From a bacterium (GTDB lineage: Bacteria > Actinomycetota > Acidimicrobiia > Spongiisociales > JAHEDJ01): a stretch of 64,000 nt of DNA. The DNA lies in NCBI GenBank assembly GCA_024641325.1, contig JAHEDJ010000001.1, positions 151,594-215,593 of the forward strand. The letters are read 5' to 3'. Below, in pieces: positions 1,806-15,511 of this stretch. Made by a program: the position numbers and the translations under genes. The first letter of the stretch is position 1. Each line of letters begins with the position of its first letter. The notes under the pieces are model-generated. The model had not been told where the DNA came from, searched no databases, and worked only from the letters and a program-made list of their open reading frames with translations.

Positions 1806-4800
1806 TCAATCCTGTCCTGCCAGCCACCTGCTCCCGGGTTCGCAGAATCGGGCGAAATCGCAATGCCGGCACGCCGAGGAGGGTTCCGCGTTCCATTCCG
1901 CAGCCTCAATGCGCCCGATGAGTTGCGAGAGGTGAATCTTCGCTCTTTCGATCCATTGGACGTCCGCTCGCTCGCTGACCGTCTCGAGCCCATCGCCGAG
2001 GTAGGCAAACGTCACGTCGATAACCTCCGGTCGATGCGCCGTGAACGGGACCTCAGTCGCAGCCAGCGCGTACGCCTCGAGTTGGACGGCCGTCTCCGGG
2101 AGCTTGGAGGGCCTCCCGGATTTGAAGTCGACGATCTCCCAATGACCGGGCGCCGGTGCGTACACAGCGTCGATTCGCCCGCGTACGGTTGAAGAACCGA
2201 TCTTCAAGTCGAACGGTGCTTCGATGAGCATCGGCTTAGACGTGGCGAATCGTGAGTTCAGGAAAGCATCGAACGGTTTGGTGCCGGCTCGTTCGGTTTC
2301 CGGAGGACCAACGTCGTATGAATCCTCCACAAAGTCGTCGAGCGGGACCTCGCCACGATGGTGCAATTCGATACGTCGGTGGACTTCGACCCCTCTTCGT
2401 GCGGCACCGGACGGCCGTCTCGGCAGGCGGTCCACCTCAGACCAGTAGAACCGCTGAGGGCAGATGGCATAGGTGACCAGTCCCGTAACAGAGGTGGAAA
2501 GCGGGTCGGGTTCGCTTGGCTTCGGAGTCTCTGGAATCCTGAACAGCTTGTCCTGATAATGCTGCACCCGATCATGGTATGCCTCGGAGACACCCAACTC
2601 GGTTGATCGCCTCTCGGCCCAGTCCGAATCCTCGGCCATCGCCCGCATGGCGACATCCCAACCCTCAGGAAAAACCGGATCCGGGGCACCTTCGCCGATC
2701 GCTTCGTATTTCAGCGTCTGCGGACGTTCGCCGGCCTCGTCCGTCCCGAGATCATCGGAGTACCGGGTCGCCAACTCGAAAAGCTCGCTTGGCCTGACAG
2801 GTTGTTTGCGAGGTTCCGGCGTTCCGTACCAGTGAGCACCCGACAGGTAAAGCCTCTCTTTTGCCCGGGTAACCGCCACATAGGCGGTTCGCCACTCCTG
2901 ACGGGAATGCTGCTCCTTGAGGGCCGCCTGTCGATCGGCGACATCCATAGATTCCGAAAGCGGTGGCAGCCTGTCGACGTCCAGGCGGAGGGAATATGGG
3001 AGAACGTGAGCCTTCTCGAACGGATCCTCGTACGACCGCACTCCCGACGGGAAGTTGTTGCGGTAGATGCCGGGAATGAAGACGACCGGCCACTCGAGCC
3101 CCTTGGCCCGATGAACGGTGAGTAGTGCGACGGCATCCTGGCCACTCAGCCTGGCCGGGGTCAGTTCTTCACTGTTGCCATCTGCCATGACATCCAGGTA
3201 TTCGAGGAAGGCAGGAAGCGACGGGCGGCCTTCCAACGGGCTCCACTCCTCGGCGAGATCGAGGAAGCGGTGCAGGTTCAAGCGAACCGACAATCTGGAT
3301 TGGTCGGGCATCGCCTCGATTTCTTGCCAGGAGCCGGTGGCCTGAAGGATCTGCCTGGCCAACTCAACCAGACTGGCCCCCTGGGCGTCCTGCAGGAGGC
3401 CTCGATACAGGGATCGGAATACTTCCAAAGCGTCGCCGGCCGCCAACTCGAGCCCGACGATGGAGTCGAGGCTGTCGATGGCTTCCAGCAACGTGGGTCT
3501 GAGAACGTCTTGGTCGGTGAGGTGGGAGCGAACCCAATGCGTGAGTGGCAGGATGTCTGCAAAACCGAGCCGGTAACGGCTGCCCAGGAGGATGCGCATG
3601 AGGGCGGGACCGTCGGCCGGGTTGTTCAGTATCTTCAGCCAGGCGTGCAACTCCACTATCTCAGGGATCGCCAGCAGGCCCCCGATGCTCGCTACTTCAG
3701 CGGGAATCTGACGTTCTTCAAGAGCCTGCTGCACGAGCGTGATGTCTTTGTTCTTGCGAAACAAAGCCGCCATCTGTCGCCATTCGTAGCCTTCTGCTCG
3801 CAGGTCGAGCAACGTATCGGCGATGAATTCGGCTTCGTCGATGGCCGTGCGAGTCCAACGGGTAGCGACAAGGCCGGGGCCCGTCCCGTCTACCGCGACC
3901 AGGTCCCTTCCCGTGTTCTCACCCGTTCCCCCACGAACTGCATTGGCGAGGTCGATCACTCGTTGGCTTGATCGCCTGTTGACCGTCAGAGATAGTGTCC
4001 TGGCAGGGGCGCCATCGGTTTGTGGAAAGTGTTCCGGAAACGCCGCGAAATTCTCCAACGACGCCCCGCGCCATTCATAGATCGTCTGGTCCGGATCTCC
4101 CACGGCCGTAACCGGGAATCCCTCGCCGAATATCTTCAACAACAGCTCGCGCTGGGCTGGATTCGTATCCTGGTATTCGTCGAGCAGCACGATCCGATAT
4201 CGAGAGCGAATGCGAGCTCCGACATCCGGGTGATCTGCGACGACCCTGTAAGCCAACCGCACGAGGTCGGAGTAGTCAACGGTGCCGAGGCGCCGTTTCT
4301 CTGCCTCGAATCGGGCGACGATTGCGGCCAGCTCACCTCTCTCGTCCCAGGGTTCCCCGGAGCAGCCGGCAGAGTGCTCCACGAGGTCGGCTGCGGTCCG
4401 GAGGTTGTCTCCGAGTTCGGATGCAAGCCTCTCTGGTCGGTCGATCATGCCGCGCCACGTAATGTCCAGATGTTCATATGACCCTGAGTCGATTGAGTCG
4501 AACAACAGTTGGCGTGCGAACGTCGGTGTGATGATCTTCGCGTCGTGTTCCACCCCGGCGAGGACGCCGAACTCACTCAGGATGAGTGCCGCAAACCCGT
4601 GGTATGTGTGGATCTCCACATCGCGACCCGGTAGAACGGTTCCTTCCAGCATCTCGGCGATGCGTTCACCCAACTCCTGGGCAGCCTTGTTGGTGAACGT
4701 GATGCCGAGAACCTGTTCGGGCTGCGCGGCCGACGTCGCGACGAGATGGGCGATCCGCATAGCGAGGGTCGTCGTCTTTCCGGTCCCGGCTCCGGCGGCG

Positions 4801-4895
4801 ATGCGGAGCGGCATTGGCGGGTATTCGACTACCTCGGTCTGTTCGGGTGTTGGGATCAGCTTCATCGCGTGAACGACTCCCGCCCTTCCGGCCAT
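1806..4895 (-). CDS. adnB: UvrD-family helicase fused to a C-terminal Cys-cluster PD-(D/E)XK nuclease; second subunit of an AdnAB-type helicase-nuclease
   Basis: 1029 aa. Walker A GAGTGKTT, helicase motifs VLLDEYQDT and LTVNRRS, and a C-terminal CRHCDFARFC Cys cluster. It overlaps the upstream paralog by 34 nt, as in an operon. Confidence 0.7.
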   Translation of the reverse strand: MAGRAGVVHAMKLIPTPEQTEVVEYPPMPLRIAAGAGTGKTTTLAMRIAHLVATSAAQPEQVLGITFTNKAAQELGERIAEMLEGTVLPGRDVEIHTYHGFAALILSEFGVLAGVEHDAKIITPTFARQLLFDSIDSGSYEHLDITWRGMIDRPERLASELGDNLRTAADLVEHSAGCSGEPWDERGELAAIVARFEAEKRRLGTVDYSDLVRLAYRVVADHPDVGARIRSRYRIVLLDEYQDTNPAQRELLLKIFGEGFPVTAVGDPDQTIYEWRGASLENFAAFPEHFPQTDGAPARTLSLTVNRRSSQRVIDLANAVRGGTGENTGRDLVAVDGTGPGLVATRWTRTAIDEAEFIADTLLDLRAEGYEWRQMAALFRKNKDITLVQQALEERQIPAEVASIGGLLAIPEIVELHAWLKILNNPADGPALMRILLGSRYRLGFADILPLTHWVRSHLTDQDVLRPTLLEAIDSLDSIVGLELAAGDALEVFRSLYRGLLQDAQGASLVELARQILQATGSWQEIEAMPDQSRLSVRLNLHRFLDLAEEWSPLEGRPSLPAFLEYLDVMADGNSEELTPARLSGQDAVALLTVHRAKGLEWPVVFIPGIYRNNFPSGVRSYEDPFEKAHVLPYSLRLDVDRLPPLSESMDVADRQAALKEQHSRQEWRTAYVAVTRAKERLYLSGAHWYGTPEPRKQPVRPSELFELATRYSDDLGTDEAGERPQTLKYEAIGEGAPDPVFPEGWDVAMRAMAEDSDWAERRSTELGVSEAYHDRVQHYQDKLFRIPETPKPSEPDPLSTSVTGLVTYAICPQRFYWSEVDRLPRRPSGAARRGVEVHRRIELHHRGEVPLDDFVEDSYDVGPPETERAGTKPFDAFLNSRFATSKPMLIEAPFDLKIGSSTVRGRIDAVYAPAPGHWEIVDFKSGRPSKLPETAVQLEAYALAATEVPFTAHRPEVIDVTFAYLGDGLETVSERADVQWIERAKIHLSQLIGRIEAAEWNAEPSSACRHCDFARFCEPGSRWLAGQD

Positions 4896-7861
4896 TCAGG
4901 GCAAACGGTCCGTACCGGGCATCGCGAGCATGCGGCGCTCACAGTGGGCGTCCAAACTTCGGCGGCGACCGATCGGCCAATTTCGGCCATCTGCTCCACG
5001 ACATCGTTCAGCTGGGCCGGATCCAGTGCCGACCACCGTTGTTTCCGCTTGGCCAGCGGGTACCAGAACTCGGCTTCAGCCGGCTCACCAAATTCTGTGA
5101 CCGCAGCGTCCTCCATTGCAGCTAACAAGTAGAACGCCAGCTGGATGGAGACGGCAGCCTCGGCAGCAGGCTTCGGTGAAGCTGTTGTCTTGTAGTCGAC
5201 GATACGTACGCCGCCCGAGGGTGTTCTTTCGATTCGGTCTGCCCTACCTCTCCATCGGACGCCCTCGATGGTTGCTTCGAGCGGGTGCTCGAGCAGAACT
5301 GGTACTGCACCCGGCCGAATCCACGCTTCATACATTCCGCGCAGAAGGCGCTCGGCTCGTTTACGCCAGGCCTCCCGGCGGGCGGCCGGTCCGAAATCGA
5401 CCGACGAGATGCGCTCGTCGAGGTGCTCGAGGGCACCCTCGACTAAACCGTGGGTTGCACCGGCTTCGACGGCCGCGCGTTCGGTTTCTTCCAGAACATC
5501 ATGGATGAGCCGCCCGAACGAAGCGTAGGGGCCCGCATCTCCGGCAGCATCGAGACGCCGTCCGAGCGCATACTGCCTTGGACAAGTCGCGTAACTCTCT
5601 GCCTGGCTGGGGGAGAGCTTCAGGTCGGGGTCGATGATTCCCGAATCGACTCCGCGCGGCCTCATTCCCGCCAGCTGGTCCACCGGTCGAATCGCCGGAT
5701 TGGGTCGACGATGGAGGGTTGCTGCGGCCGCCAACCGGCGGGAAGGTGTGGTTGCGGGATCGACCACCATGCGCCTGAGGTGGGCTTCGGCCTCGGCCGG
5801 GGTAACCGGGACCCGATCGTCTGAGTCCATCGGTGGTTCTCTCTCGGTAGCCGCGTCCATCCCTTCGATACCCATTGCCGAAAGGAATCGGCTGGGCCGC
5901 CGCCGCGGGTCGTCACTTCCCGCATCCGTCGCCGTCCAGACGACCAGGCGGGCTGCCCTGGTCATGGCCGTGTATGCGAGCCGCATCTCCTCCTGCAATC
6001 TGAATTGCCGAGCCGCGAGCGGGTCTGGATCATGGTGAGGAGAAAGCAGCCGTGTCTGGAGGATCGAGCGCTGTCTTCGCAGGTCGGGCATCACACCTTC
6101 AACCGCGTCGGCGATGAAGACGATTTCGAAACTGAGGCCCTTCGATTGGTGGAGCGTTGTTAGCGTCAACCGATCGCTCGTGTCACCGGAGTAGCGGAGT
6201 AGGGGAGTGGCTTCGAAGTCTTCCCGCTCGGCCAGGCTGACGTAGCCGGCGAGTGTGAGGTTCGGATCGCGAGCCTCCTGGCGGCTCAGGACCTGGGCAA
6301 ACGCCGACCATGCCGAGCGATAGTCAGCTCGTCCTGGGTCATGAACGAGTGCATCGAATTGGGGGAGCGAATTCCAGAGAACCCAGAACCCGGCGGCGGC
6401 CGATCCTGATGTTGCCCAGGTAGGATTGGCCAGCAATCCGGCTAGTGCATTGGCTCCCGGAACGTAATCCTCGAGGATTGCCGGCCACGGCCGGCCGGAA
6501 CGGAGGCGATGCCTATATGCGTCTCGCTCGATGCTCAGCGGAACGCCGAAGAGTGGGCCGAGAAGCAGACGTCGAATGACACGGTCGGCGTCGAGGCTAC
6601 CTCCGGTGGTGTCGTCGGCCTGAGCCGCGAGGACTATATCGAAGATGAGTCTTACGCCTGGATGATCGACGAGCCGAGCATCCGGAAGATCATGTGGGAT
6701 CGATCGACGCTCCAGTGCCCTTGACAGCTCGGGAAGGAATCTGCGCTTCGATCTCACCAACACGGCGATGGTCTTGATAGGAAGCTCTTCCTCGATATGG
6801 AGGCGTTCGATTTCACCGGCGATCCACTCGGCCTCCTCTGATTGTTGCCGGAATCTGCGAATCTCGACCCGGCCGGAATGCGAAGCTGGGACTACCGGAC
6901 CGGTCCCACCGGGGAGATCGCCGCCGGCAGTCAGTCGGACGGCTGCGGAGAGGATCTCGGGAGGGACGCGGAAGGAGGTTGTTAGGACCAGCCTGTCCGC
7001 CGGCGATCCATCCAGGTTGGTGAACCGGCCCGGGAAATCTGCCACGTTGTGTAACTCGGCGCCCCGAAAGGAGTAGACCGATTGATAGGGGTCGGCCGCA
7101 ACGGTGATATTGCGGTGGTGCTCCGTCAACCTGGCCAGCATTTCGGACTGGGCGGCGGTGGTGTCCTGGTACTCGTCGACGATCAGGTAGTGGAATTGCT
7201 GCGCTACCTGCTCCCGGACTTCAGGATCCTGAAGGAGATCAACGGCGAGCATCTGGAGTGACCCGTAGTCGAGCCGCCCGCGTCTGGTCAGCTCCGTTGC
7301 ATATCGTTCCAGGAAGTCGGGAAGCGCCCGCCAATCATCCCTTTGACGGGCGAGCGAGCGGAGCTCGGCATCGCCGAGCAGGTATTCACGACTTCGCATG
7401 ATGAAGTCGGCCACCTCCTCCGCGAAGGTCATCGAACCAAGGAGCGGGCGGAACAAAACCGGCCATCGACCGGGTTCTTCCGAGGCGAGTAGTTCTGAGA
7501 CTAGGGCAACCTGTTCCGGTCCCGTGAGCAGCGATGGCATCTCGTCCCAGCCAAAGCAGTTCCGACCGTGTCGCTCGAGGAGTCGGAAGGCGAGAGAATG
7601 GAATGTCGAGGCAGGGACTTCGGTGGTCGAGCGGTTGGATCGCTTGAGTACCCGGTCCTTTAGATCTGAGGCAGCTCGACGGGAGAACGTCAGCATGGCG
7701 ATTCGCTCTGCCGGCACCGCGTGCAGCTCCGTGAGCTCCACAAAGCGCCGCACGAGGAACTCGGTTTTGCCCGTCCCCGGTCCCGCCACGACGATCTGCG
7801 ACCCGGCGACCTGTGCTATCGCTTCCGGCCAGTCTTCAGGGCCAATCCGCCACTCAGGCAT
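4862..7861 (-). CDS. adnA: UvrD-family helicase-nuclease; first subunit of an AdnAB-type pair
   Basis: 999 aa. Walker A GPGTGKTEF, motifs VDEYQDT and TSFR, and a C-terminal CSRCPVRTVCPEW Cys cluster. Confidence 0.7.
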   Translation of the reverse strand: MPEWRIGPEDWPEAIAQVAGSQIVVAGPGTGKTEFLVRRFVELTELHAVPAERIAMLTFSRRAASDLKDRVLKRSNRSTTEVPASTFHSLAFRLLERHGRNCFGWDEMPSLLTGPEQVALVSELLASEEPGRWPVLFRPLLGSMTFAEEVADFIMRSREYLLGDAELRSLARQRDDWRALPDFLERYATELTRRGRLDYGSLQMLAVDLLQDPEVREQVAQQFHYLIVDEYQDTTAAQSEMLARLTEHHRNITVAADPYQSVYSFRGAELHNVADFPGRFTNLDGSPADRLVLTTSFRVPPEILSAAVRLTAGGDLPGGTGPVVPASHSGRVEIRRFRQQSEEAEWIAGEIERLHIEEELPIKTIAVLVRSKRRFLPELSRALERRSIPHDLPDARLVDHPGVRLIFDIVLAAQADDTTGGSLDADRVIRRLLLGPLFGVPLSIERDAYRHRLRSGRPWPAILEDYVPGANALAGLLANPTWATSGSAAAGFWVLWNSLPQFDALVHDPGRADYRSAWSAFAQVLSRQEARDPNLTLAGYVSLAEREDFEATPLLRYSGDTSDRLTLTTLHQSKGLSFEIVFIADAVEGVMPDLRRQRSILQTRLLSPHHDPDPLAARQFRLQEEMRLAYTAMTRAARLVVWTATDAGSDDPRRRPSRFLSAMGIEGMDAATEREPPMDSDDRVPVTPAEAEAHLRRMVVDPATTPSRRLAAAATLHRRPNPAIRPVDQLAGMRPRGVDSGIIDPDLKLSPSQAESYATCPRQYALGRRLDAAGDAGPYASFGRLIHDVLEETERAAVEAGATHGLVEGALEHLDERISSVDFGPAARREAWRKRAERLLRGMYEAWIRPGAVPVLLEHPLEATIEGVRWRGRADRIERTPSGGVRIVDYKTTASPKPAAEAAVSIQLAFYLLAAMEDAAVTEFGEPAEAEFWYPLAKRKQRWSALDPAQLNDVVEQMAEIGRSVAAEVWTPTVSAACSRCPVRTVCPEWPEGRESFTR

Positions 7862-8121: not shown

Positions 8122-8910
8122 TCACGCCGAACTCGCCAGGGGTTGGTCTGCCTCAACGGCAAAAGCCGGACACCGATCCTGGAAAGAACACCAGTCGCAT
8201 AGTGGCCCAGGGCGGGGAGGGAAGCTTCCAGTGTCGATTGCTCTGTCGATCGCTGCCCAGAGTGCCCGCAGCTGCTGCTCCATGCCGTTCAGGTGTCCCT
8301 CACTGATCGGGAGTCGATAAAGGGTGGGTCCATTGAGATACAACAACCGGACCTCGACTGGTGACCGACCCGTCTTGTGTCGAATCAGAAGCGCATAGAT
8401 CTTGAGGGCGAAGAAAGCCGACAGAGCGAACCGTTCTGGTGGCGCCTTTCCCGTCTTGTAATCGGTGATGACCAGGTCGCCATCGGGCAGTTCATCTATT
8501 CGGTCGAGTATCCCACGGATTGTGATTCCGCCGAGATCCTCGAGCATGTCCATCTCACGTTCCAGCGGGGCTACCTCGACCGGGTTCTCGATAGCAAAAT
8601 AGTTTGCAAGTAGTTCGAGGCTTTCGATTCCCCACGAGCGTTCTTCTTCATCAGTGGCGAACAGATCGGCGTATTCGTCGGTGGCTCGCAGATCCGTCCA
8701 AGCCTTGCGGAAGAGGTCGAAGAGGGCCTCCGGAGTGCGCTGTTCGGGAGAGAAGTCGTATAGGTCCTGAAGGGCCAGGTGGGCTGTCGTCCCGCGAGCC
8801 TGGTAGATGGTCACGGGCTCTGGTATGCGATCAATCGAGCGGAACTTGAAGAGCTGCGGGCACTGCTTGAAGTCGCTCGCTCTGCTCGGCGACAGGGTTT
8901 CTAATGGCAT
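8122..8910 (-). CDS. PD-(D/E)XK nuclease of the RecB/Cas4-like family with a C-terminal 4-Cys cluster
   Basis: The ORF track extends to 9231, but the extra N-terminus is encoded by the repeat region. The in-frame ATG at 8910 (MPLETLSPSRASDFKQCPQLFKF) gives 262 aa. The protein has a DYKTGK motif and a C-terminal CDWCSFQDRCPAF cluster. Confidence 0.6.
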   Translation of the reverse strand: MPLETLSPSRASDFKQCPQLFKFRSIDRIPEPVTIYQARGTTAHLALQDLYDFSPEQRTPEALFDLFRKAWTDLRATDEYADLFATDEEERSWGIESLELLANYFAIENPVEVAPLEREMDMLEDLGGITIRGILDRIDELPDGDLVITDYKTGKAPPERFALSAFFALKIYALLIRHKTGRSPVEVRLLYLNGPTLYRLPISEGHLNGMEQQLRALWAAIDRAIDTGSFPPRPGPLCDWCSFQDRCPAFAVEADQPLASSA

Positions 8911-8954
8911 GTCACGACTATACGACACCGGAATGACACAATTGAGATTCGGTG

Positions 8955-8982
8955 TCGCGAAAACTCCGGTTAGGTCGCGAAA
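8955..8982 (+). promoter_or_regulatory. pair of direct repeats (G)TCGCGAAAA (8955-8962 and 8975-8982) upstream of promoter P1
   Basis: Two identical 8-mers containing the palindromic TCGCGA core, 20 bp apart. The proximal one ends 18 bp before the -35. The same arrangement recurs upstream of P2 (9347-9375). Confidence 0.35.
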
Positions 8983-9000
8983 AGAACCCACCCCTGTGCC

Positions 9001-9030
9001 TTGACGCCCTTCTGCCGGAGGCGTTATGTT
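9001..9030 (+). promoter_or_regulatory. sigma70-like promoter P1 (TTGACG, 18 nt, TATGTT), predicted start near 9037
   Basis: Read directly from the sequence. The -35 is at 9001-9006 and the -10 at 9025-9030. It is oriented into the repeat array and divergent from the nuclease gene. Confidence 0.4.
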
Positions 9031-9036
9031 CATAAG

Positions 9037-9215
9037 TACCGCAGCGCAGGAAACTGCGAGGCGGACTGAAGAGACCGAGAGGACTCTTTGGACCGACATC
9101 GGTGGCAACGCCGGTGAAGGGAGTCTTCGGGAAGACCGAGCCTTCGGGTTAGGAGTTCCCAGGACCGGTAGCCCCGAGAGGGTGATGACTTCGGTCAGAG
9201 CTTTCTCGGGGTTTT
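9037..9215 (+). ncRNA. candidate ~180-nt structured sRNA from P1, ending at terminator-like hairpin T1
   Basis: It contains a CGCAG-GAAA-CUGCG hairpin and two C(UUCG)G hairpins (gucuucggg, gccuucggg). Its last ~60 nt resemble the 3' end of the 693-bp unit. It ends in a CCCCGAGAG...CUUUCUCGGGG stem followed by UUUU. Confidence 0.3.
9172..9215 (+). terminator. intrinsic-terminator-like hairpin T1 (identical T2 at 9865-9908 and T3 at 10558-10601)
   Basis: CCCCGAGAG pairs with CUUUCUCGGGG around an inner GAUGAC-UUCG-GUCAGAG hairpin, followed by UUUUCC. One copy begins each repeat unit. Confidence 0.45.
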
Positions 9216-9392
9216 CCGCGTCAGGGGGCACGATTCGCGATTCGCTTTTCGGGTCCAGGCTGATCCTGCTATCTGCTGTAGGAGGGAGCCAACTGCCGGC
9301 GGCCAGTGGCCATTGGCCTTGGCCTTGGCCTTTGTTGTCCGCTACTTCGCGAAATCTTGGTTCGGGTCGCGAAATCTAGGGTCGCTTTGAGT

Positions 9393-9421
9393 TTGCGTTG
9401 GGTGGGGGTGGCAGATAAGTT
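9393..9421 (+). promoter_or_regulatory. promoter-like element P2 (TTGCGT, 17 nt, TAAGTT) inside the repeat unit; duplicate P2' at 10086-10114
   Basis: Preceded by TCGCGAAA repeats at 9347-9354 and 9368-9375 with the same spacing as at P1. Shares the 9-mer ttctgccgg with the P1 region. Confidence 0.35.
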
Positions 9422-9427
9422 CTCGTT

Positions 9428-9908
9428 CTGCCGGTTCGGGGGCAACTCCGAGACGGCATCGTCCCAGAAGGGGCCATTTGGGAAACCGAGCGGTTTTGGA
9501 CGGGACAACCACTTCGGTGGACTCCTGAAAGGGAGAGGTGGTTCGTAAGGATCACCCGTCCCGGGAGGCCTTCGGGTCTATCGGGCGACCGGCTGAAGTG
9601 TTGGTTTCCTCTTCGGAGGAGACCGGGTTTCTTGGAAACGAGAGGCCACCCTCTCGGGAACGAGAGGCACCTTCTGGAAACAGGTGGTGTCGATCCGAAG
9701 CGAGAGGCCTCCTCGAAAGAGGAGATGTTCGACACCGGACCTTCGGGCCTGGTGGAGGGCACCCGGAGCTGAAAGGCTTTGGGTCTGGAGTAGTGGAAAC
9801 GCTGCTTCGGAGCTCGCCTCGGCGCTGGGTCCTTCGGGACTCGAACCGGAGCGGGGTTCGGGAGCCCCGAGAGGGTGATGACTTCGGTCAGAGCTTTCTC
9901 GGGGTTTT
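9428..9908 (+). ncRNA. candidate ~480-nt structured ncRNA (P2 to T2); an identical second copy is predicted at 10121-10601
   Basis: There are 7 cttcgg hexamers per 693-nt unit (expected ~0.25). Perfect tetraloop hairpins include CCAC-UUCG-GUGG, CCUC-UUCG-GAGG, GUCC-UUCG-GGAC and CCUCCUC-GAAA-GAGGAG. Long-range helices GGACGGG/CCCGUCC enclose a 3-hairpin junction. GGUGUCGA pairs with UCGACACC. Confidence 0.35.
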
Positions 9909-10690
9909 CCGCGTCAGGGGGCACGATTCGCGATTCGCTTTTCGGGTCCAGGCTGATCCTGCTATCTGCTGTAGGAGGGAGCCAACTGCCGGCGGCCAGT
10001 GGCCATTGGCCTTGGCCTTGGCCTTTGTTGTCCGCTACTTCGCGAAATCTTGGTTCGGGTCGCGAAATCTAGGGTCGCTTTGAGTTTGCGTTGGGTGGGG
10101 GTGGCAGATAAGTTCTCGTTCTGCCGGTTCGGGGGCAACTCCGAGACGGCATCGTCCCAGAAGGGGCCATTTGGGAAACCGAGCGGTTTTGGACGGGACA
10201 ACCACTTCGGTGGACTCCTGAAAGGGAGAGGTGGTTCGTAAGGATCACCCGTCCCGGGAGGCCTTCGGGTCTATCGGGCGACCGGCTGAAGTGTTGGTTT
10301 CCTCTTCGGAGGAGACCGGGTTTCTTGGAAACGAGAGGCCACCCTCTCGGGAACGAGAGGCACCTTCTGGAAACAGGTGGTGTCGATCCGAAGCGAGAGG
10401 CCTCCTCGAAAGAGGAGATGTTCGACACCGGACCTTCGGGCCTGGTGGAGGGCACCCGGAGCTGAAAGGCTTTGGGTCTGGAGTAGTGGAAACGCTGCTT
10501 CGGAGCTCGCCTCGGCGCTGGGTCCTTCGGGACTCGAACCGGAGCGGGGTTCGGGAGCCCCGAGAGGGTGATGACTTCGGTCAGAGCTTTCTCGGGGTTT
10601 TCCGCGTCAGGGGGCACGATTCGCGATTCGCTTTTCGGGTCCAGGCTGATCCTGCTACCTGCCGACTCGCGACTCGCGTACTATGGCCCT

Positions 10691-11293
10691 ATGCCTTATC
10701 CAGAACGCTTGTTGAGTCCCGGGGAAACGGTTCAAATCGAGTTTCGACCTCATTGGCAGCGAATCATCGCGCCTACGTTTGTCACGCTCATCGCCATCGC
10801 AGCCGAGGTGGCCGTCCTTGTTCTGCTCGAGGACACTGCCAGGTGGATATCCCTGGCTGCGCTGGCCCTTGTCTGGCTCATCATTGCGCTTCCGCGCTAC
10901 CTCGACTGGTGGTTCACCCGCTACATCATCACCAGCGAGCGCTTGATCGCCAGATCCGGCGTTCTCGCCCGTCACGGCAAGGAGATCCCGCTCGAAGTCA
11001 TCAATGACGTTGCCTTCTCGCAGTCGATGCTGGAGCGGTTGGTCCGGTCGGGCGATCTTCTGATCGAGTCCGCAGGAGAACACGGGCAGAGCCGTTTCAC
11101 TGATGTTCCGCGTCCCGAGGACATACAGGCATTGATCTATCAGCTCCGCGAGAAGCGAACGGTTGCGCTCGAAGGCGGCAATGGAGGAGGCGCAGCAGGA
11201 CAACTGGAGGCACTCGCTCGCCTTCACAAGGACGGCATCCTGACCGACGAGGAGTTCTCGGCCAAGAAGCAGAAACTTCTCGACGAGATCTGA
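10691..11293 (+). CDS. membrane protein with bacterial PH domain (bPH_2, YdbS/YdbT-like) and C-terminal SHOCT domain
   Basis: The ORF track starts at 10568 inside repeat copy 3. The in-frame ATG at 10691 gives MPYPERLLSPGETVQIEFRPHWQRI followed by two TM helices. The C-terminal LEALARLHKDGILTDEEFSAKKQKLL is SHOCT-like. Confidence 0.55.
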   Translation: MPYPERLLSPGETVQIEFRPHWQRIIAPTFVTLIAIAAEVAVLVLLEDTARWISLAALALVWLIIALPRYLDWWFTRYIITSERLIARSGVLARHGKEIPLEVINDVAFSQSMLERLVRSGDLLIESAGEHGQSRFTDVPRPEDIQALIYQLREKRTVALEGGNGGGAAGQLEALARLHKDGILTDEEFSAKKQKLLDEI

Positions 11294-12129: not shown

Positions 12130-12912
12130 ATGCTGCTCGAGGGAAAGAAACTCGTCATTACCGGTGTCGTGACAGATACGTCCATCGCCTGGCATGTAGC
12201 TCGCATTGCTCAAGAAGAGGGTGCCGAGGTCGTGCTAACGGGCTTCGGGCGCGGGATGCGATTGACGGAACGAGCTTCAAAACGTCTTCCGTCGGCTGCC
12301 GATGTTCTCGAACTCGACATCAACGATCAATCGCATATGGATGCGCTCGTTGCGGATCTCGAATCACGGTGGGGCGTCGTCGATGGAGCGCTTCACGCGA
12401 TCGCGTTTGCGCCGCAGGATGCCCTTGGTGGCAACTTCCTCAACACGCCGGTGGAGAGTGCCGTCATAGCATTCCAGACATCAGCCTTCTCGTATAAGAC
12501 GCTGGCGGTCGGCTTGGCGCCGCTGATGCGGTCGGCCGGCGGGGGAGCCCTGGTCACGTTGGATTTCGACAACTCGCAGGCATGGCCTATCTACGACTGG
12601 ATGGGCGTGGCGAAGTCTGCGCTTCAGTCCGTTACCCGCTACCTGGCCCGGGACCTGGGCGTCGACAGGATCCGCGTCAATGCGGTTTCTGCCGGGCCGC
12701 TGTCAACAATCGCCGCCAAGTCGATCCCGGGATTCCAGTCTCTCGAGAAAGCCTGGCTTCAGCGATCGCCTATCGAGTGGGATTCATCGGATCCAACGCC
12801 GGTGGCTCAGATGGTGGCGCTGCTGCTCTCCGATTGGACGCCAATGACGACGGGTGAGGTAGTTCACGTCGATGGCGGCTTTCACTCGCTGGCGGCGGGA
12901 TTCCGGGAGTAA
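12130..12912 (+). CDS. fabI: enoyl-[acyl-carrier-protein] reductase (NADH), FabI/InhA family
   Basis: MLLEGKKLVITGV...SIAWHVARIAQEEGAEVVLTG and SAGPLSTIAAKSIPG match InhA/FabI. ATG at 12130 after ggagagg. The ORF track begins upstream at 12073. Confidence 0.8.
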   Translation: MLLEGKKLVITGVVTDTSIAWHVARIAQEEGAEVVLTGFGRGMRLTERASKRLPSAADVLELDINDQSHMDALVADLESRWGVVDGALHAIAFAPQDALGGNFLNTPVESAVIAFQTSAFSYKTLAVGLAPLMRSAGGGALVTLDFDNSQAWPIYDWMGVAKSALQSVTRYLARDLGVDRIRVNAVSAGPLSTIAAKSIPGFQSLEKAWLQRSPIEWDSSDPTPVAQMVALLLSDWTPMTTGEVVHVDGGFHSLAAGFRE

Positions 12913-14684
12913 TCCAGTTCCCCCGGGTCCAGCGCACGTGGCACCGAACGGGGTCGGACCGGCAAGTCGACAACGAAAGTCGCCCCACCGCCCGGCGTAT
13001 CTTCAAGACGGACGGATCCACCCATCGATTCGGCCAAACCCTTGACGATGGCCAGACCCAGCCCGGTCCCACTGCGTGATCTCGTTGCCGCCGGCTCCAA
13101 CTGCGTGAAAGGTTCGAACACCTTGCCGCGCATGTCGGGGTCTATTCCCGGACCGTGGTCGACGACGCTTATTTCAACCCTGTCGCCGATAGCAACGGCG
13201 GCGAGTTCTGTAGGGGCGCCATGTGCATACTTCAATGCGTTCTGGATCAGATTGATGAGTACGCGGCCGAGGTGATCCGGGTCGACCCTCATATTGATCG
13301 ACTCGGCGACCCGGACGGCGACGTGCTCGGCTGCCTCGGGGATTTCATCGAGGACGGTCCTGATGAAGGGTTCGAGATCTATTTCGGCTGGATGCTGAGG
13401 CAGCGCCTGGTTGTCGATACGGGAGGTCATCAGCAAGTTTTCGATCAACAGGCGGAGGCGACCGGCCTGATTCCGAGCTGAGTCGAGCAAGCTGAGTGCG
13501 CTGCTGTTCTGCGGAGCAAGTTCCGGTCGCGCAATTGTGTCGAGCGAGCCGATGATGCTTGTCAGGGGAGTTCGCAACTCATGCGACACGACCGATACGA
13601 AATCAGATTTGAGCTGGGCGAGTTCTTCCATCCGGCGACCGGTTTCGGCCGCCTCCTCATACCGGCCGAGATGGGCGAGAACCAGTGCGGCAGGGGCCGA
13701 CAGAGAGGCGAGAACGTCGAGGTCTTCATCGGTGAACGGCGTTCCGTCCGTCCGGTCCGCCACCATCATGACCCCCATCGTTCGGTGTTCGACCTTCAGC
13801 GGGACGGCAAGTGCATGCTCGACGCCGAGTTCGGTCAGCAGGTGGTTGGCGGTGTTGGCGTCGCTTTGACCGAACCGGCGCGCCTGTCCTGAAACGAACG
13901 TTTGCTCGATGTCGCCTCTTCGCCGCAGCGGAAGTAGATAGCCGGTCACATCCAAGGTATGTCCTGCTGCCCAGATGGGGCTCACAACTTCAAGAGCAGC
14001 CCGATCGCGATCGTGAAGCAGCACGACCCCGACTTCGGCCTTCAGGTAGGTGGCTATCTTGCCGACGAGCTCGGGAAGAACCCGCGTCAACGAGTCGCCG
14101 ACGGCCAGTGTGCGAGATACCTCGTAGAGGCGCTCGAGGTCTCGCTCCCTGGCCTCGAGTTCGCGTTGTCTTCCGATTCCGACGCGAATCTCCCGACGCA
14201 ACTCGTTTGTGATGGCGGCGGTGGCGAGGGCGACGACGACCAGGGTGATTGTCGGGACCACGATGTCTTCCGCGGTCGGCATGCTGCCGAACGCGGCCTG
14301 GGCGATGAAGTTCGTTGCGATCAGCACCAACGCGGTCACGAGCGGCACGAGCCAGTGGGAGAGTGCTGCCATCAACGCCACCACGCCGAAATAGCCGATG
14401 AGAACGAACGAAGCGAAGGCGGGGACCGTCGCCATGATGCTCATCGCCGACCCGATGGTTATCACGCCCAGCAGCAGCAACAAATCACCCGAGCCGCGCC
14501 GGAGCGTGAGATCCCAGTTGGGAAGGGTCAGCGCTCCGAGAACGGCCGCGATAGCCGCCAGCGGCGCCCACACGCGGATGTTCTCGACTTCCCCTATCCG
14601 CCAGGTGGCGAACAGAAACGCGGCGAGCATGAGCCATCCGGCGCGAAGAGCGAGGTTGACGACTCGGGCTCTGGATGCAGCCAT
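12882..14684 (-). CDS. membrane sensor histidine kinase with GAF domain (KdpD C-terminal-half-like); orphan, no adjacent response regulator
   Basis: HisKA VSHELRTPLTSI and HATPase GLGLAIVKGLAESMGGSVRL. About 5 TM helices and a GAF-like region lie upstream. The likely start is the ATG at 14684 (MAASRARV...). The ORF track's extension to 15146 is low-complexity. Confidence 0.65.
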   Translation of the reverse strand: MAASRARVVNLALRAGWLMLAAFLFATWRIGEVENIRVWAPLAAIAAVLGALTLPNWDLTLRRGSGDLLLLLGVITIGSAMSIMATVPAFASFVLIGYFGVVALMAALSHWLVPLVTALVLIATNFIAQAAFGSMPTAEDIVVPTITLVVVALATAAITNELRREIRVGIGRQRELEARERDLERLYEVSRTLAVGDSLTRVLPELVGKIATYLKAEVGVVLLHDRDRAALEVVSPIWAAGHTLDVTGYLLPLRRRGDIEQTFVSGQARRFGQSDANTANHLLTELGVEHALAVPLKVEHRTMGVMMVADRTDGTPFTDEDLDVLASLSAPAALVLAHLGRYEEAAETGRRMEELAQLKSDFVSVVSHELRTPLTSIIGSLDTIARPELAPQNSSALSLLDSARNQAGRLRLLIENLLMTSRIDNQALPQHPAEIDLEPFIRTVLDEIPEAAEHVAVRVAESINMRVDPDHLGRVLINLIQNALKYAHGAPTELAAVAIGDRVEISVVDHGPGIDPDMRGKVFEPFTQLEPAATRSRSGTGLGLAIVKGLAESMGGSVRLEDTPGGGATFVVDLPVRPRSVPRALDPGELDYSRNPAASE

Positions 14685-14782
14685 CGCAGCTCTCGTCGAG
14701 CGCTGTTCGTTGATTGAAGGGATGGTCACGATGGTCAGGGTAATCTCCGCGCCATGACCGATCTCGGATCGTCGATCTTCCG

Positions 14783-15511
14783 ATGACGCTCCGTGCCTAT
14801 GGATCGCTCTTCGGGGTGCGGTACGGAGACGGCCCGCTGCAGGTTCTCGCACTGCATGGGTGGGGACGAACGCGGGCCGATTTCGATGGACTGTTGCCGG
14901 GTTATGAAGCGGTTGCGCTCGATCTTCCCGGCTTTGGTGCTTCACCGGCTCCTCAGCAGCCGGTCGGGGCGGCCGGATACGCGCGGCTGATCGAGGACGT
15001 GCTCGGTGAGTTTGATGCACCGCCGGTCGTTGTCGGACATTCGTTCGGTGGTCGGGTCGCGGTGGCTTTGGCGGCCGCCCGCCCGGATTCTGTTTCCGGC
15101 CTCGTCCTGGTCGGTGTGCCCTTGGTTCGCCGGGAACGTCCCGCAACGGGAATCCCGTGGCGATACCGTCTGATCCGCGGCGCGGCCAAGGCGGGCCTCG
15201 TTTCGGATGAGCGGCTCGAGCGGGCCCGCCGCCGGTTCGGTTCTGCCGACTATCGAGCAGCGACGGGTGTCATGCGCGACGTACTGGTGAAGGTCGTCAA
15301 CGAGAGCTATGAGAGTGAGCTGGCCCGCCTTGTTTGTCCCGTGCGACTCGTCTGGGGAGAGAACGATGCCGCAGTGCCGCTGGCGGTGGCCAGAGGAGCA
15401 GTCGACGTCCTTGCCGATGTAACCCTCGACGTGGTGGCTGGTGCCGGCCATGACGTCCACCTCTCTCACCCCGATCGGATGAAGGCGGCCATAGACGGGC
15501 TCTTGAAGTGA
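14783..15511 (+). CDS. alpha/beta hydrolase fold protein
   Basis: LALHGWGRT and the nucleophile elbow GHSFGG are present. Confidence 0.65.
   Translation: MTLRAYGSLFGVRYGDGPLQVLALHGWGRTRADFDGLLPGYEAVALDLPGFGASPAPQQPVGAAGYARLIEDVLGEFDAPPVVVGHSFGGRVAVALAAARPDSVSGLVLVGVPLVRRERPATGIPWRYRLIRGAAKAGLVSDERLERARRRFGSADYRAATGVMRDVLVKVVNESYESELARLVCPVRLVWGENDAAVPLAVARGAVDVLADVTLDVVAGAGHDVHLSHPDRMKAAIDGLLK

Follow-up and report, generated by a model that had tools for sequence, protein, structure and literature searches.

A putative class-wide family of structured RNA genes, with short and long forms, beside a nuclease gene in Acidimicrobiia

Introduction

Between a PD-(D/E)XK nuclease gene and a bPH_2-SHOCT membrane-protein gene of an Acidimicrobiia bacterium lies an interval of 1.78 kb (positions 8911-10690) that has no credible gene and contains a perfect tandem repeat; what does this DNA encode? 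The interval is part of a 64-kb stretch of contig JAHEDJ010000001.1 (assembly GCA_024641325.1), the whole of which is called the window here. It comes from a metagenome-assembled genome (MAG) of the Acidimicrobiia, and the closest relatives of the adjoining nuclease (100-65% identity) are in MAGs labelled Acidimicrobiia. The original prediction, made from the sequence alone, saw here a novel structured noncoding RNA, arranged as one small and two larger RNAs followed by the bPH_2-SHOCT gene. Both the call and the layout hold up well: there is no Rfam match, homologues are present in relatives, their substitutions are compensatory, and each of the three RNAs has its own predicted promoter and terminal hairpin. 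On this comparative evidence the region very probably comprises three independent genes, one short (S) and two long (L), of a previously undescribed family of structured RNAs, whose transcripts are predicted. The fuller statement, that the family is new and that its members act in trans by binding protein, is given a probability of about 0.5.

The predicted genes

The elements of the three genes are as follows (R1 is the covariance model of the 3′ rod).

8956-8982, + strand: paired CGCGAAA boxes of S (8956-8962 and 8976-8982), upstream of the S promoter
9001-9030, + strand: S promoter, with -35 TTGACG (9001-9006), 18-nt spacer and -10 TATGTT (9025-9030), from a promoter scan
about 9037-9218, + strand: S RNA gene, about 182 nt, predicted ends
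9039-9064, + strand: 5′ GNRA hairpin of S (loop GAAA, 9050-9053)
9066-9091, + strand: S hairpin with GAGA loop
about 9092-9120, + strand: S hairpin with GCAA loop, clade-specific
about 9121-9160, + strand: S helix around a UUCG hairpin, with conserved unpaired AGAC/GGAGU
9163-9223, + strand: 3′ rod of S, core hairpin CCCCGAGAGGG...CUUUCUCGGGG (9172-9211), R1 score 68.3 bits
9170-10657, no strand assigned: perfect tandem repeat, its unit consisting of rod, spacer, boxes, promoter and long-RNA body
9348-9374, + strand: paired CGCGAAA boxes of L copy 1, from pattern count and family consensus
9393-9421, + strand: L copy 1 promoter, with -35 TTGCGT (9393-9398), 17-nt spacer and -10 TAAGTT (9416-9421)
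about 9428-9911, + strand: L copy 1, about 484 nt, about 14 hairpins, predicted ends
9630-9681, + strand: repeated hairpin modules of the CUCUYG-GAAA-CRAGAG type, centre of L copy 1
9856-9916, + strand: 3′ rod of L copy 1, R1 score 71.3 bits
10041-10067, + strand: paired CGCGAAA boxes of L copy 2, from pattern count
10086-10114, + strand: L copy 2 promoter, the same as that of copy 1 by identity at a shift of 693
about 10121-10604, + strand: L copy 2, identical to copy 1, predicted ends
10323-10374, + strand: repeated hairpin modules of L copy 2, from Tandem Repeats Finder
10549-10609, + strand: 3′ rod of L copy 2, R1 score 71.3 bits

Folding and compensatory change

The hairpin-dense + strand with UUCG and GNRA caps that had been described is well supported by folding, which is strongly asymmetric between the strands. 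The S RNA (9037-9218) folds at -100.8 kcal/mol (z = -7.8) on the + strand versus -70.4 (z = -3.1) on the - strand, and its minimum free energy structure makes up 34% of the ensemble; for L (9428-9910) the values are -271 kcal/mol (z = -8.4) and -191 (z = -3.3), and all 14 of its predicted hairpin loops are GNRA or UUCG. The count of seven CTTCGG hexamers per repeat unit on the + strand is correct (9189, 9512, 9570, 9611, 9741, 9805, and 9832), but the background of about 0.25 that had been set against it is too low; the window contains 54, of which 17 lie in 9001-10657, so that outside this region about 0.4 are found per 693 bp and the enrichment is about 17-fold.

Six L homologues with a mean identity of 82% (those of the window, GCA_030598025 [locus L081], GCA_029210695 [locus L082], and three metagenome contigs) were aligned. 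The RNAalifold consensus has 156 pairs in which 98.2% of the cells are paired, and 16 pairs display compensatory double changes, versus 3-7 when partners are slid by 1-3 columns; none of 500 column shuffles reaches the observed values. The test of substitutions that had been proposed thus came out as compensatory and not codon-like, in line with selection on the structure. In the variable centre of the alignment (columns 232-310), whole CUCUYG-GAAA-CRAGAG hairpins are present or absent between homologues; in the window these modules have a period of 22 and 2.5 copies by Tandem Repeats Finder. Two long-range helices had been drawn in the unit. That of GGUGUCGA with UCGACACC is not confirmed, its segment being missing or different in the relatives, and for GGACGGG/CCCGUCC (9498-9504 with 9555-9561) the comparative data speak neither for nor against, RNAalifold offering an alternative.

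For S, register shifts left plain MAFFT and RNAalifold with a poor consensus over the whole set of short RNAs. The helices (those of the 5′ hairpin and the GAGA-loop hairpin, the one around the UUCG hairpin, and the rod) were therefore specified by hand and counted in an alignment of 25 S RNAs. Compensatory changes occur in 31 of the 48 pairs (13-26 in slid controls), with a covariation score of 0.41 (at most 0.20 in controls), and neither value is reached by any of 500 shuffles. Three sets of unpaired bases are invariant: the GNRA loop capping the first hairpin, the GAGA loop capping the second, and AGAC/GGAGU beside the UUCG hairpin; a tandem G-A loop is conserved besides these.

S and L have the 5′ GNRA hairpin and the last ∼80 nt in common, and an nhmmer profile built on the 3′ domain of S aligns with L from position 7 of the profile on. 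From these shared parts and the profile match, L looks like an S into whose centre a large block of GNRA- or UUCG-capped hairpins has been inserted, the number of hairpins varying by genome.

The 3′ rod

The hairpins at 9172-9215, 9865-9908, and 10558-10601 had been read as intrinsic terminators with a run of four U residues. The hairpins themselves are confirmed, as the only three R1 matches in the 64 kb, but the U-run is base-paired. A stem followed by 3-4 U is present, and these pair with upstream purines, with covariation; the helix gains five further pairs from the supposed U-tail, in which one U is bulged and AU-to-GC covariation is seen (in S, 9166-9171 pairs with 9213-9218). A simple terminator scan did not list the rod, and the internal UUCG hairpins that it did pick (9601-9626) are not regarded as terminators. 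Because the helix includes the supposed tail, the functional RNA must, if this fold is right, reach at least 6-7 nt past the G-run, and its predicted 3′ end is fully paired.

Of 110 distinct copies of the rod, 88 are of one length. Sixty distinct copies were aligned without gaps; seven pairs in the lower stem are invariant (CCC-GAG... / ...CUC-GGG, plus one G-U and one G-C) among neighbouring pairs that covary, and an A-C mismatch is retained in 40 of the 60. The top consists of 3 bp capped by UUCG, beyond an internal loop that usually has tandem G-A. Fifteen pairs carry compensatory changes; slid controls give 6-10, and none of 500 shuffles attains this count. By these alignments, the terminal hairpin appears to be a rod of about 20 bp that includes the U-run and has a sequence-invariant lower stem, and not a plain terminator. 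When the 0.97 Mb made up of the window and the other sampled loci was searched with R1, 156 matches of 42-85 bits were found, all of them at the RNA locus, whereas the antisense strands of the same sites score 26-42 bits.

The DNA that follows the rod (9212-9223, 9905-9916, and 10598-10609, and at other loci too) is conserved past the paired part, with the consensus UUUCUCGCGU (UUUUCCGCGU in the window). This sequence includes CGCG, as do the promoter boxes.

Promoters and CGCGAAA boxes

The promoter TTGACG-18-TATGTT that had been proposed upstream of S is picked up by the promoter scanner, and its position and hexamers fit the family consensus. The second proposed element, TTGCGT-17-TAAGTT inside the unit, falls below the scanner's cutoff, yet it is kept in all six homologues of L (CTTGCGT/CTTGCAT ... 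GATAAGT/GATATGT) and aligns with the family promoter.

Both are preceded by a pair of CGCGAAA boxes. The pattern CGCGAAA-N12-15-CGCGAAA occurs three times in the window where none is expected, exactly at the three predicted promoters, and in the fetched loci nearly every box-pair match adjoins a copy of the 3′ rod. The consensus of 136 distinct promoter regions aligned on the second box is CGCGAAA-N13/14-tCGCGAAAAc-∼18 nt-cTTGac-N17/18-TAcnTT. The two boxes of a pair are spaced 20-21 bp apart on the same face of the DNA helix, some 60 and 80 bp ahead of the predicted start; they are candidates either for an activator site or for a bend or UP-like element.

Distribution in the Acidimicrobiia

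Relatives were sampled through 80 syntenic loci found by nuclease alignment in GTDB contigs (one genome per species), five more loci found by exact-protein look-up, and four from JGI metagenomes found by DNA pattern. The last are the real long-RNA homologues (L087, L088, L089, and L093) among eight loci returned by the pattern scan; the other four (L086 and L090-L092) are chance matches inside unrelated sequence.

By blastn, wide conservation is confined to the terminal hairpin of ∼45 nt and, in the short element, to its final ∼85 nt. Iterated nhmmer finds the 3′ element in 77 of 86 regions upstream of the nuclease, usually at least twice and oriented as in the window, with two exact CGCGAAA boxes ahead of almost all copies. 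The distance from boxes to hairpin defines two size classes, short RNAs of ∼140-181 nt and long RNAs of ∼260-590 nt, with one to five genes in each array. The long RNAs have 5-17 hairpins (median 11), and across the family 80% of the predicted loops of the long and 86% of those of the short RNAs are GNRA or UNCG tetraloops, the commonest being UUCG, GAAA, GCAA, and GAGA. The homologues that had been looked for in relatives are thus present at syntenic loci across the Acidimicrobiia, in about 80 independent assemblies that include contigs of 0.2-1 Mb. By their sequences, S and the two L genes belong to a class-wide Acidimicrobiia family with short and long forms, and the range of this family may be limited to the one class.

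The arrangement is not rigid. In L019 and L029 (6806-7630, + strand) the RNA genes lie downstream of the nuclease and are codirectional with it, and in seven loci (L023, L027, L052, L056, L064, L066, and L077) the S gene is inverted and transcribed toward the nuclease. In about 35 loci the bPH_2-SHOCT gene, on the same strand, starts 50-150 nt past the last rod; in most loci it has its own -10 element 6-7 nt ahead of the ATG, and it is absent from the arrays of L007-L009, L015, and L021. The interval between S and L is an insertion hot spot; it contains genes for an AraC-type regulator and an MFS transporter in L081 (3111-5054), and in L076 and L036 an open reading frame (ORF) of ∼150 aa that starts MPLEGTY.

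In other genera (for example L076, L036, and L063) the middle of the short RNA is swapped for a hairpin with an invariant 12-16-nt loop, GGGGGCCCGCUUUCCC; these are called subtype B. The long RNAs of the same genomes carry an invariant UUGGGUCCCCGGCCCGAC. It is possible that kissing contacts form, as GGGGGCCC is able to pair with GGGUCCCC and GGGCCC is self-complementary; covariation is uninformative on this point.

Origin of the tandem repeat

The 693-bp tandem unit that had been described is real, and its copies are perfectly identical: 9170-9964 equals 9863-10657 with no mismatch at a shift of 693 (2.15 copies). It should not be equated with the RNA, since the unit spans from one 3′ hairpin to the next. 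Direct repeats of 111 nt, made of the rod and the spacer that follows it, surround L (9166-9276, 9859-9969, and 10552-10662; 98-100% identical), and in three relatives (L081, L088, and L093) S is accompanied by only one L. Given these flanking repeats and the single-copy relatives, unequal recombination between the 111-nt repeats accounts exactly for the array repeat-L-repeat-L-repeat, and the sequence comparison indicates that the duplication is a recent, lineage-specific event. L082 has independently duplicated its L unit, a shorter one of 588 bp, again without mismatch. On contigs of 0.4-0.6 Mb, L005 and L007-L009 carry four to five S and L genes in array, with slight differences between the copies; by these sequences, therefore, amplification at this locus is real and recurrent.

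Twelve of 86 contigs stop within 850 nt upstream of the nuclease (L001, L006, L022, L026, L039, L041, L043, L055, L072, and L083-L085), and two of them, L026 and L084, break off within the 3′ rod; short-read assemblies are evidently broken by the repetition of rod and spacer. The spacer that leads from the rod to the next boxes contains a run of three GGCCTT (GCCATTGGCCTTGGCCTTGGCCTTTG; 9309-9334 in the window, and again at +693).

Other identities considered

Rfam 15 has no match at gathering threshold anywhere in the window, in agreement with the expectation that no known family would be found; a permissive search of 8900-10750 gives only chance-level matches (E ≥ 0.24, 12-23 bits versus gathering scores of 40-77), and five other loci give none at E ≤ 0.5. 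ARAGORN finds no tRNA or tmRNA gene in the window, as had been proposed for tmRNA in this region. The earlier statement that no reading frame spans the unit also stands, the longest ORFs being of 181-182 aa (9538-10083, + strand, and 9376-9924, - strand) and without Pfam match. A protein-coding origin was rejected on these grounds and because neither long ORF frame has an excess of third-position changes (per codon position between the window and five L homologues, for example, 20/24/26 and 17/27/14), indels of 1-2 nt being common.

A mobile or viral element was likewise rejected. Blastn against plasmids and phages gave no match, and the 51 rod-pattern matches in viral contigs, none of which passes the covariance model (one match of 21 bits), are chance inverted repeats. 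The rod is found nowhere else in the window, which sets it apart from dispersed repeats of the repetitive extragenic palindrome or uptake-sequence kind. Membership of the Csr/Rsm RNAs by GGA motifs does not fit loops that are 80-86% GNRA or UNCG. Literature searches for small or structured RNAs of Acidimicrobiia returned nothing relevant.

A model for the action of S and L

The housekeeping sigma factor would transcribe S and L from the TTGac/TAnnnT promoter, stimulated by the phased boxes at about -60 and -80 through an activator or an intrinsic bend. The rod most likely ends transcription and would leave a fully paired, exonuclease-resistant 3′ end, and S and L would then act in trans as abundant and very stable folded RNAs. 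A protein partner would recognise the invariant rod and the conserved internal loops, the RNA serving as scaffold or sponge, and gene copy number and hairpin number would set its capacity; this would be the logic of Csr/Rsm, and not its chemistry. Protein binding is suggested by the seven invariant rod pairs amid covarying ones, by the conserved AGAC/GGAGU and G-A loop, and by the variable number of hairpins and genes; as a mode of action it is proposed tentatively, with something short of an even chance.

Several points weigh against the proposed family of protein-binding RNAs. The starts, ends, abundance, and expression of the RNAs are predictions of the model, and no candidate emerged for either a partner protein or a factor that binds the boxes. 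In blastn, long RNAs from distant genomes match the L of the window at their termini alone, so the long forms may be parallel expansions and not one orthologous molecule. The tetraloops are generic and stabilising and include no repeated recognition motif like GGA, which makes the valency argument for a sponge weak. The invariance of the rod could reflect termination efficiency or RNase III processing instead, and the perfect identity of the tandem copies could also stem from the assembler, the copy number here being assembly-based.

Alternative explanations

One alternative, which appears unlikely, is that S and L are the Acidimicrobiia counterpart of 6S or Ms1, sequestering RNA polymerase holoenzyme or core polymerase in non-growing cells. 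They are class-wide and syntenic, come as two paralogues of 150-480 nt, and are probably highly expressed (as predicted), and the 64-kb window has no 6S match; in Bacillus too there are two 6S paralogues, 6S-1 and 6S-2. The fold with covariation support tells against 6S, as the ends of S form a local 5′ hairpin and a local 3′ rod and do not pair with each other into a closing stem around a central bubble. The 64 kb is also only a part of the genome, so a 6S or Ms1 gene may lie elsewhere. Actinobacteria are reported to lack 6S RNA, and a survey of Ms1 synteny, in which Acidimicrobiia are unmentioned, gives the conserved flanking genes of Ms1 as a HAD-IB hydrolase, an oxidoreductase, and a morphological-differentiation inhibitor (PMC9130861). 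The neighbours here are the PD-(D/E)XK nuclease and bPH_2-SHOCT genes, so that S and L are set apart from Ms1 by synteny.

It is similarly doubtful that S and L are base-pairing small RNAs in which conserved unpaired segments would seed on mRNAs, with tandem copies acting additively as in the Qrr or LhrC arrays. Stand-alone genes from promoter to terminator, in several copies and with a common upstream box, would suit this role, as would the invariant loop of the subtype-B short RNAs. Against it, the subtype found in the window is nearly all paired or in tetraloops, its conserved unpaired stretches (AGAC and GGAGU) being of 4-5 nt, and seed pairing needs no body of 480 nt and 14 hairpins; no target was found, though no search aimed at one was made.

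With odds no better than those of the two preceding alternatives, S and L might be the RNA parts of an unrecognised housekeeping ribonucleoprotein or RNA-only assembly of the Acidimicrobiia, whose expression a dedicated CGCGAAA-binding factor would switch. Two forms of this idea share the one low estimate: a replacement for 6S/Ms1 that would control RNA polymerase, or a particle that would assemble itself through GNRA loops and the subtype-B GGGCCC loops in S-L or L-L contacts.

It is improbable that the RNAs serve the neighbouring DNA-damage nuclease/AdnAB module, whether as a cofactor, as a guide-like element, or by antisense or occlusion at the divergent nuclease promoter. The RNA genes do stay beside the nuclease after at least two kinds of rearrangement (downstream placement in two loci, inversion of S in seven), and no more than ∼50 bp separates the boxes of the S promoter from the nuclease promoter. 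This adjacency may be plain inheritance within one class, however, and the whole order from nuclease to fabI is conserved. The RNAs neither complement the nuclease mRNA nor have a motif in common with it, and this nuclease family extends far beyond the RNA family as sampled.

A leader, riboswitch, or attenuator acting in cis on the bPH_2-SHOCT gene, or a type III toxin-antitoxin-like RNA array ahead of it, is very improbable. The gene follows the last rod closely and on the same strand in many loci, with a terminator-like hairpin between RNA and gene. It is not a leader, since the S genes precede another RNA promoter and not a coding gene, arrays exist without the bPH_2-SHOCT gene, and that gene is leaderless with its own -10; the units are promoter-to-rod genes of 150-500 nt, and the downstream protein, of bPH_2 and SHOCT domains, is a membrane PH-domain protein and not an endoribonuclease.

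Hardly credible, except as regards copy number, is an artefact (an assembly-made repeat, a selfish DNA repeat, or a mis-called coding sequence), which the 100% identity of the copies, the many contigs that break here, and the ORFs called over the region might suggest, but against which stand the same-locus homologues in independent assemblies, strand-specific compensatory changes, the lack of a codon signal, and the absence of the rod from plasmids, phages, viral contigs, and all other parts of the window.

Genomic surroundings

The genes and intervals on either side of the three RNA genes are as follows.

1806-4895 and 4862-7861, - strand: two AdnA/AdnB-like helicase-nucleases
8122-8910, - strand: PD-(D/E)XK (RecB-type) nuclease gene, 262 aa
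8911-10690: the 1.78-kb interval without credible gene
10691-11293, + strand: bPH_2-SHOCT membrane-protein gene
downstream of the bPH_2-SHOCT gene: two small conserved ORFs, then fabI

The nuclease gene looks leaderless, with a -10 element TATAGT (the reverse complement of 8917-8922) 6 nt ahead of its ATG. Eight nt upstream of this lies TGTCATTC (the reverse complement of 8931-8938), which is kept in most loci and with GAATCnCAA makes up an imperfect palindrome near the nuclease promoter (8908-8950, - strand). Its spacing fits that of the mycobacterial PafBC / RecA-NDp DNA-damage promoter (TGTCRGTG-N8-TAnnnT). The bPH_2-SHOCT gene is leaderless too (TACTAT at 10679-10684, ATG at 10691). Immediately beyond fabI, both here (12882-15146, - strand) and in L082, is a gene for a GAF-HisKA-HATPase sensor kinase, and no adjacent response-regulator gene was seen.

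The nuclease ORF can be extended to 369 aa (8122-9231, - strand) across the opposite strand of the S RNA. Public entries for this nuclease (proteins P0001 and P0003 among them) have 287-289 aa versus the 262 aa here and may bear such an N-terminal extension. In L081 a called "protein" of 194 aa (2246-2830, - strand) overlies the long RNA; gene callers put translations on the RNA genes, and public gene calls wrongly annotate the locus as protein.

Comparison with known systems

To our knowledge, widely conserved or large structured RNAs without a known job are rare. Earlier orphan structured RNAs opened new biology, as did 6S, OLE, raiA, and HEARO, the last of which is the guide RNA of IscB. 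The Acidimicrobiia are abundant in soil, fresh water, and the sea and are poorly studied; if expressed, S and L would likely be among the dominant small transcripts in the metatranscriptomes of these habitats, and they would fill a gap in a class without reported 6S or Ms1. The gene model is unusually full and testable, with a promoter that has a unique box pair, a fold backed by covariation, a signature rod, and natural variation in copies and modules, and R1 provides a specific marker for finding the locus.

In kind, S and L are a new family within a known class of things, the stand-alone structured RNA genes of bacteria; their unusual traits are the paired short and long forms, the invariant rod, the dedicated pair of boxes, and the near-exclusive use of GNRA and UNCG loops. 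The Csr/Rsm RNAs (CsrB/CsrC and RsmX/Y/Z) are hairpin-built and stand-alone, with paralogues of different lengths, an upstream GacA/UvrY box, and a terminator hairpin. S and L are like them in being hairpin-built stand-alone genes with paralogues, variable modules, some tandem copies, a box ahead of the -35, and a terminal hairpin, but their loops are without GGA/ANGGA, they have no Rfam match, and the invariant rod has no Csr/Rsm counterpart. With 6S and Ms1 they share a similar size, a stand-alone (predicted) and lineage-wide nature, and the presence of two paralogues, whereas they have neither an end-to-end rod nor a central bubble, lie among other neighbours, and have no Rfam 6S match.

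L resembles OLE, ROOL, GOLLD, HEARO, and raiA in size class (260-590 nt), richness in GNRA loops, and covariation support. It differs in having no match to their Rfam models, in being a string of hairpins with a length-variable centre instead of a fixed multi-junction fold, and, together with S, in being found in one class and at one locus among the loci sampled, without association with phages or mobile elements. Finally, the rod is like an intrinsic (Rho-independent) terminator in that each gene ends in a G+C-rich hairpin with 3-4 U behind it, and unlike one in its fixed length, its seven invariant pairs, its conserved internal loop, and a U-run that is paired and covaries.

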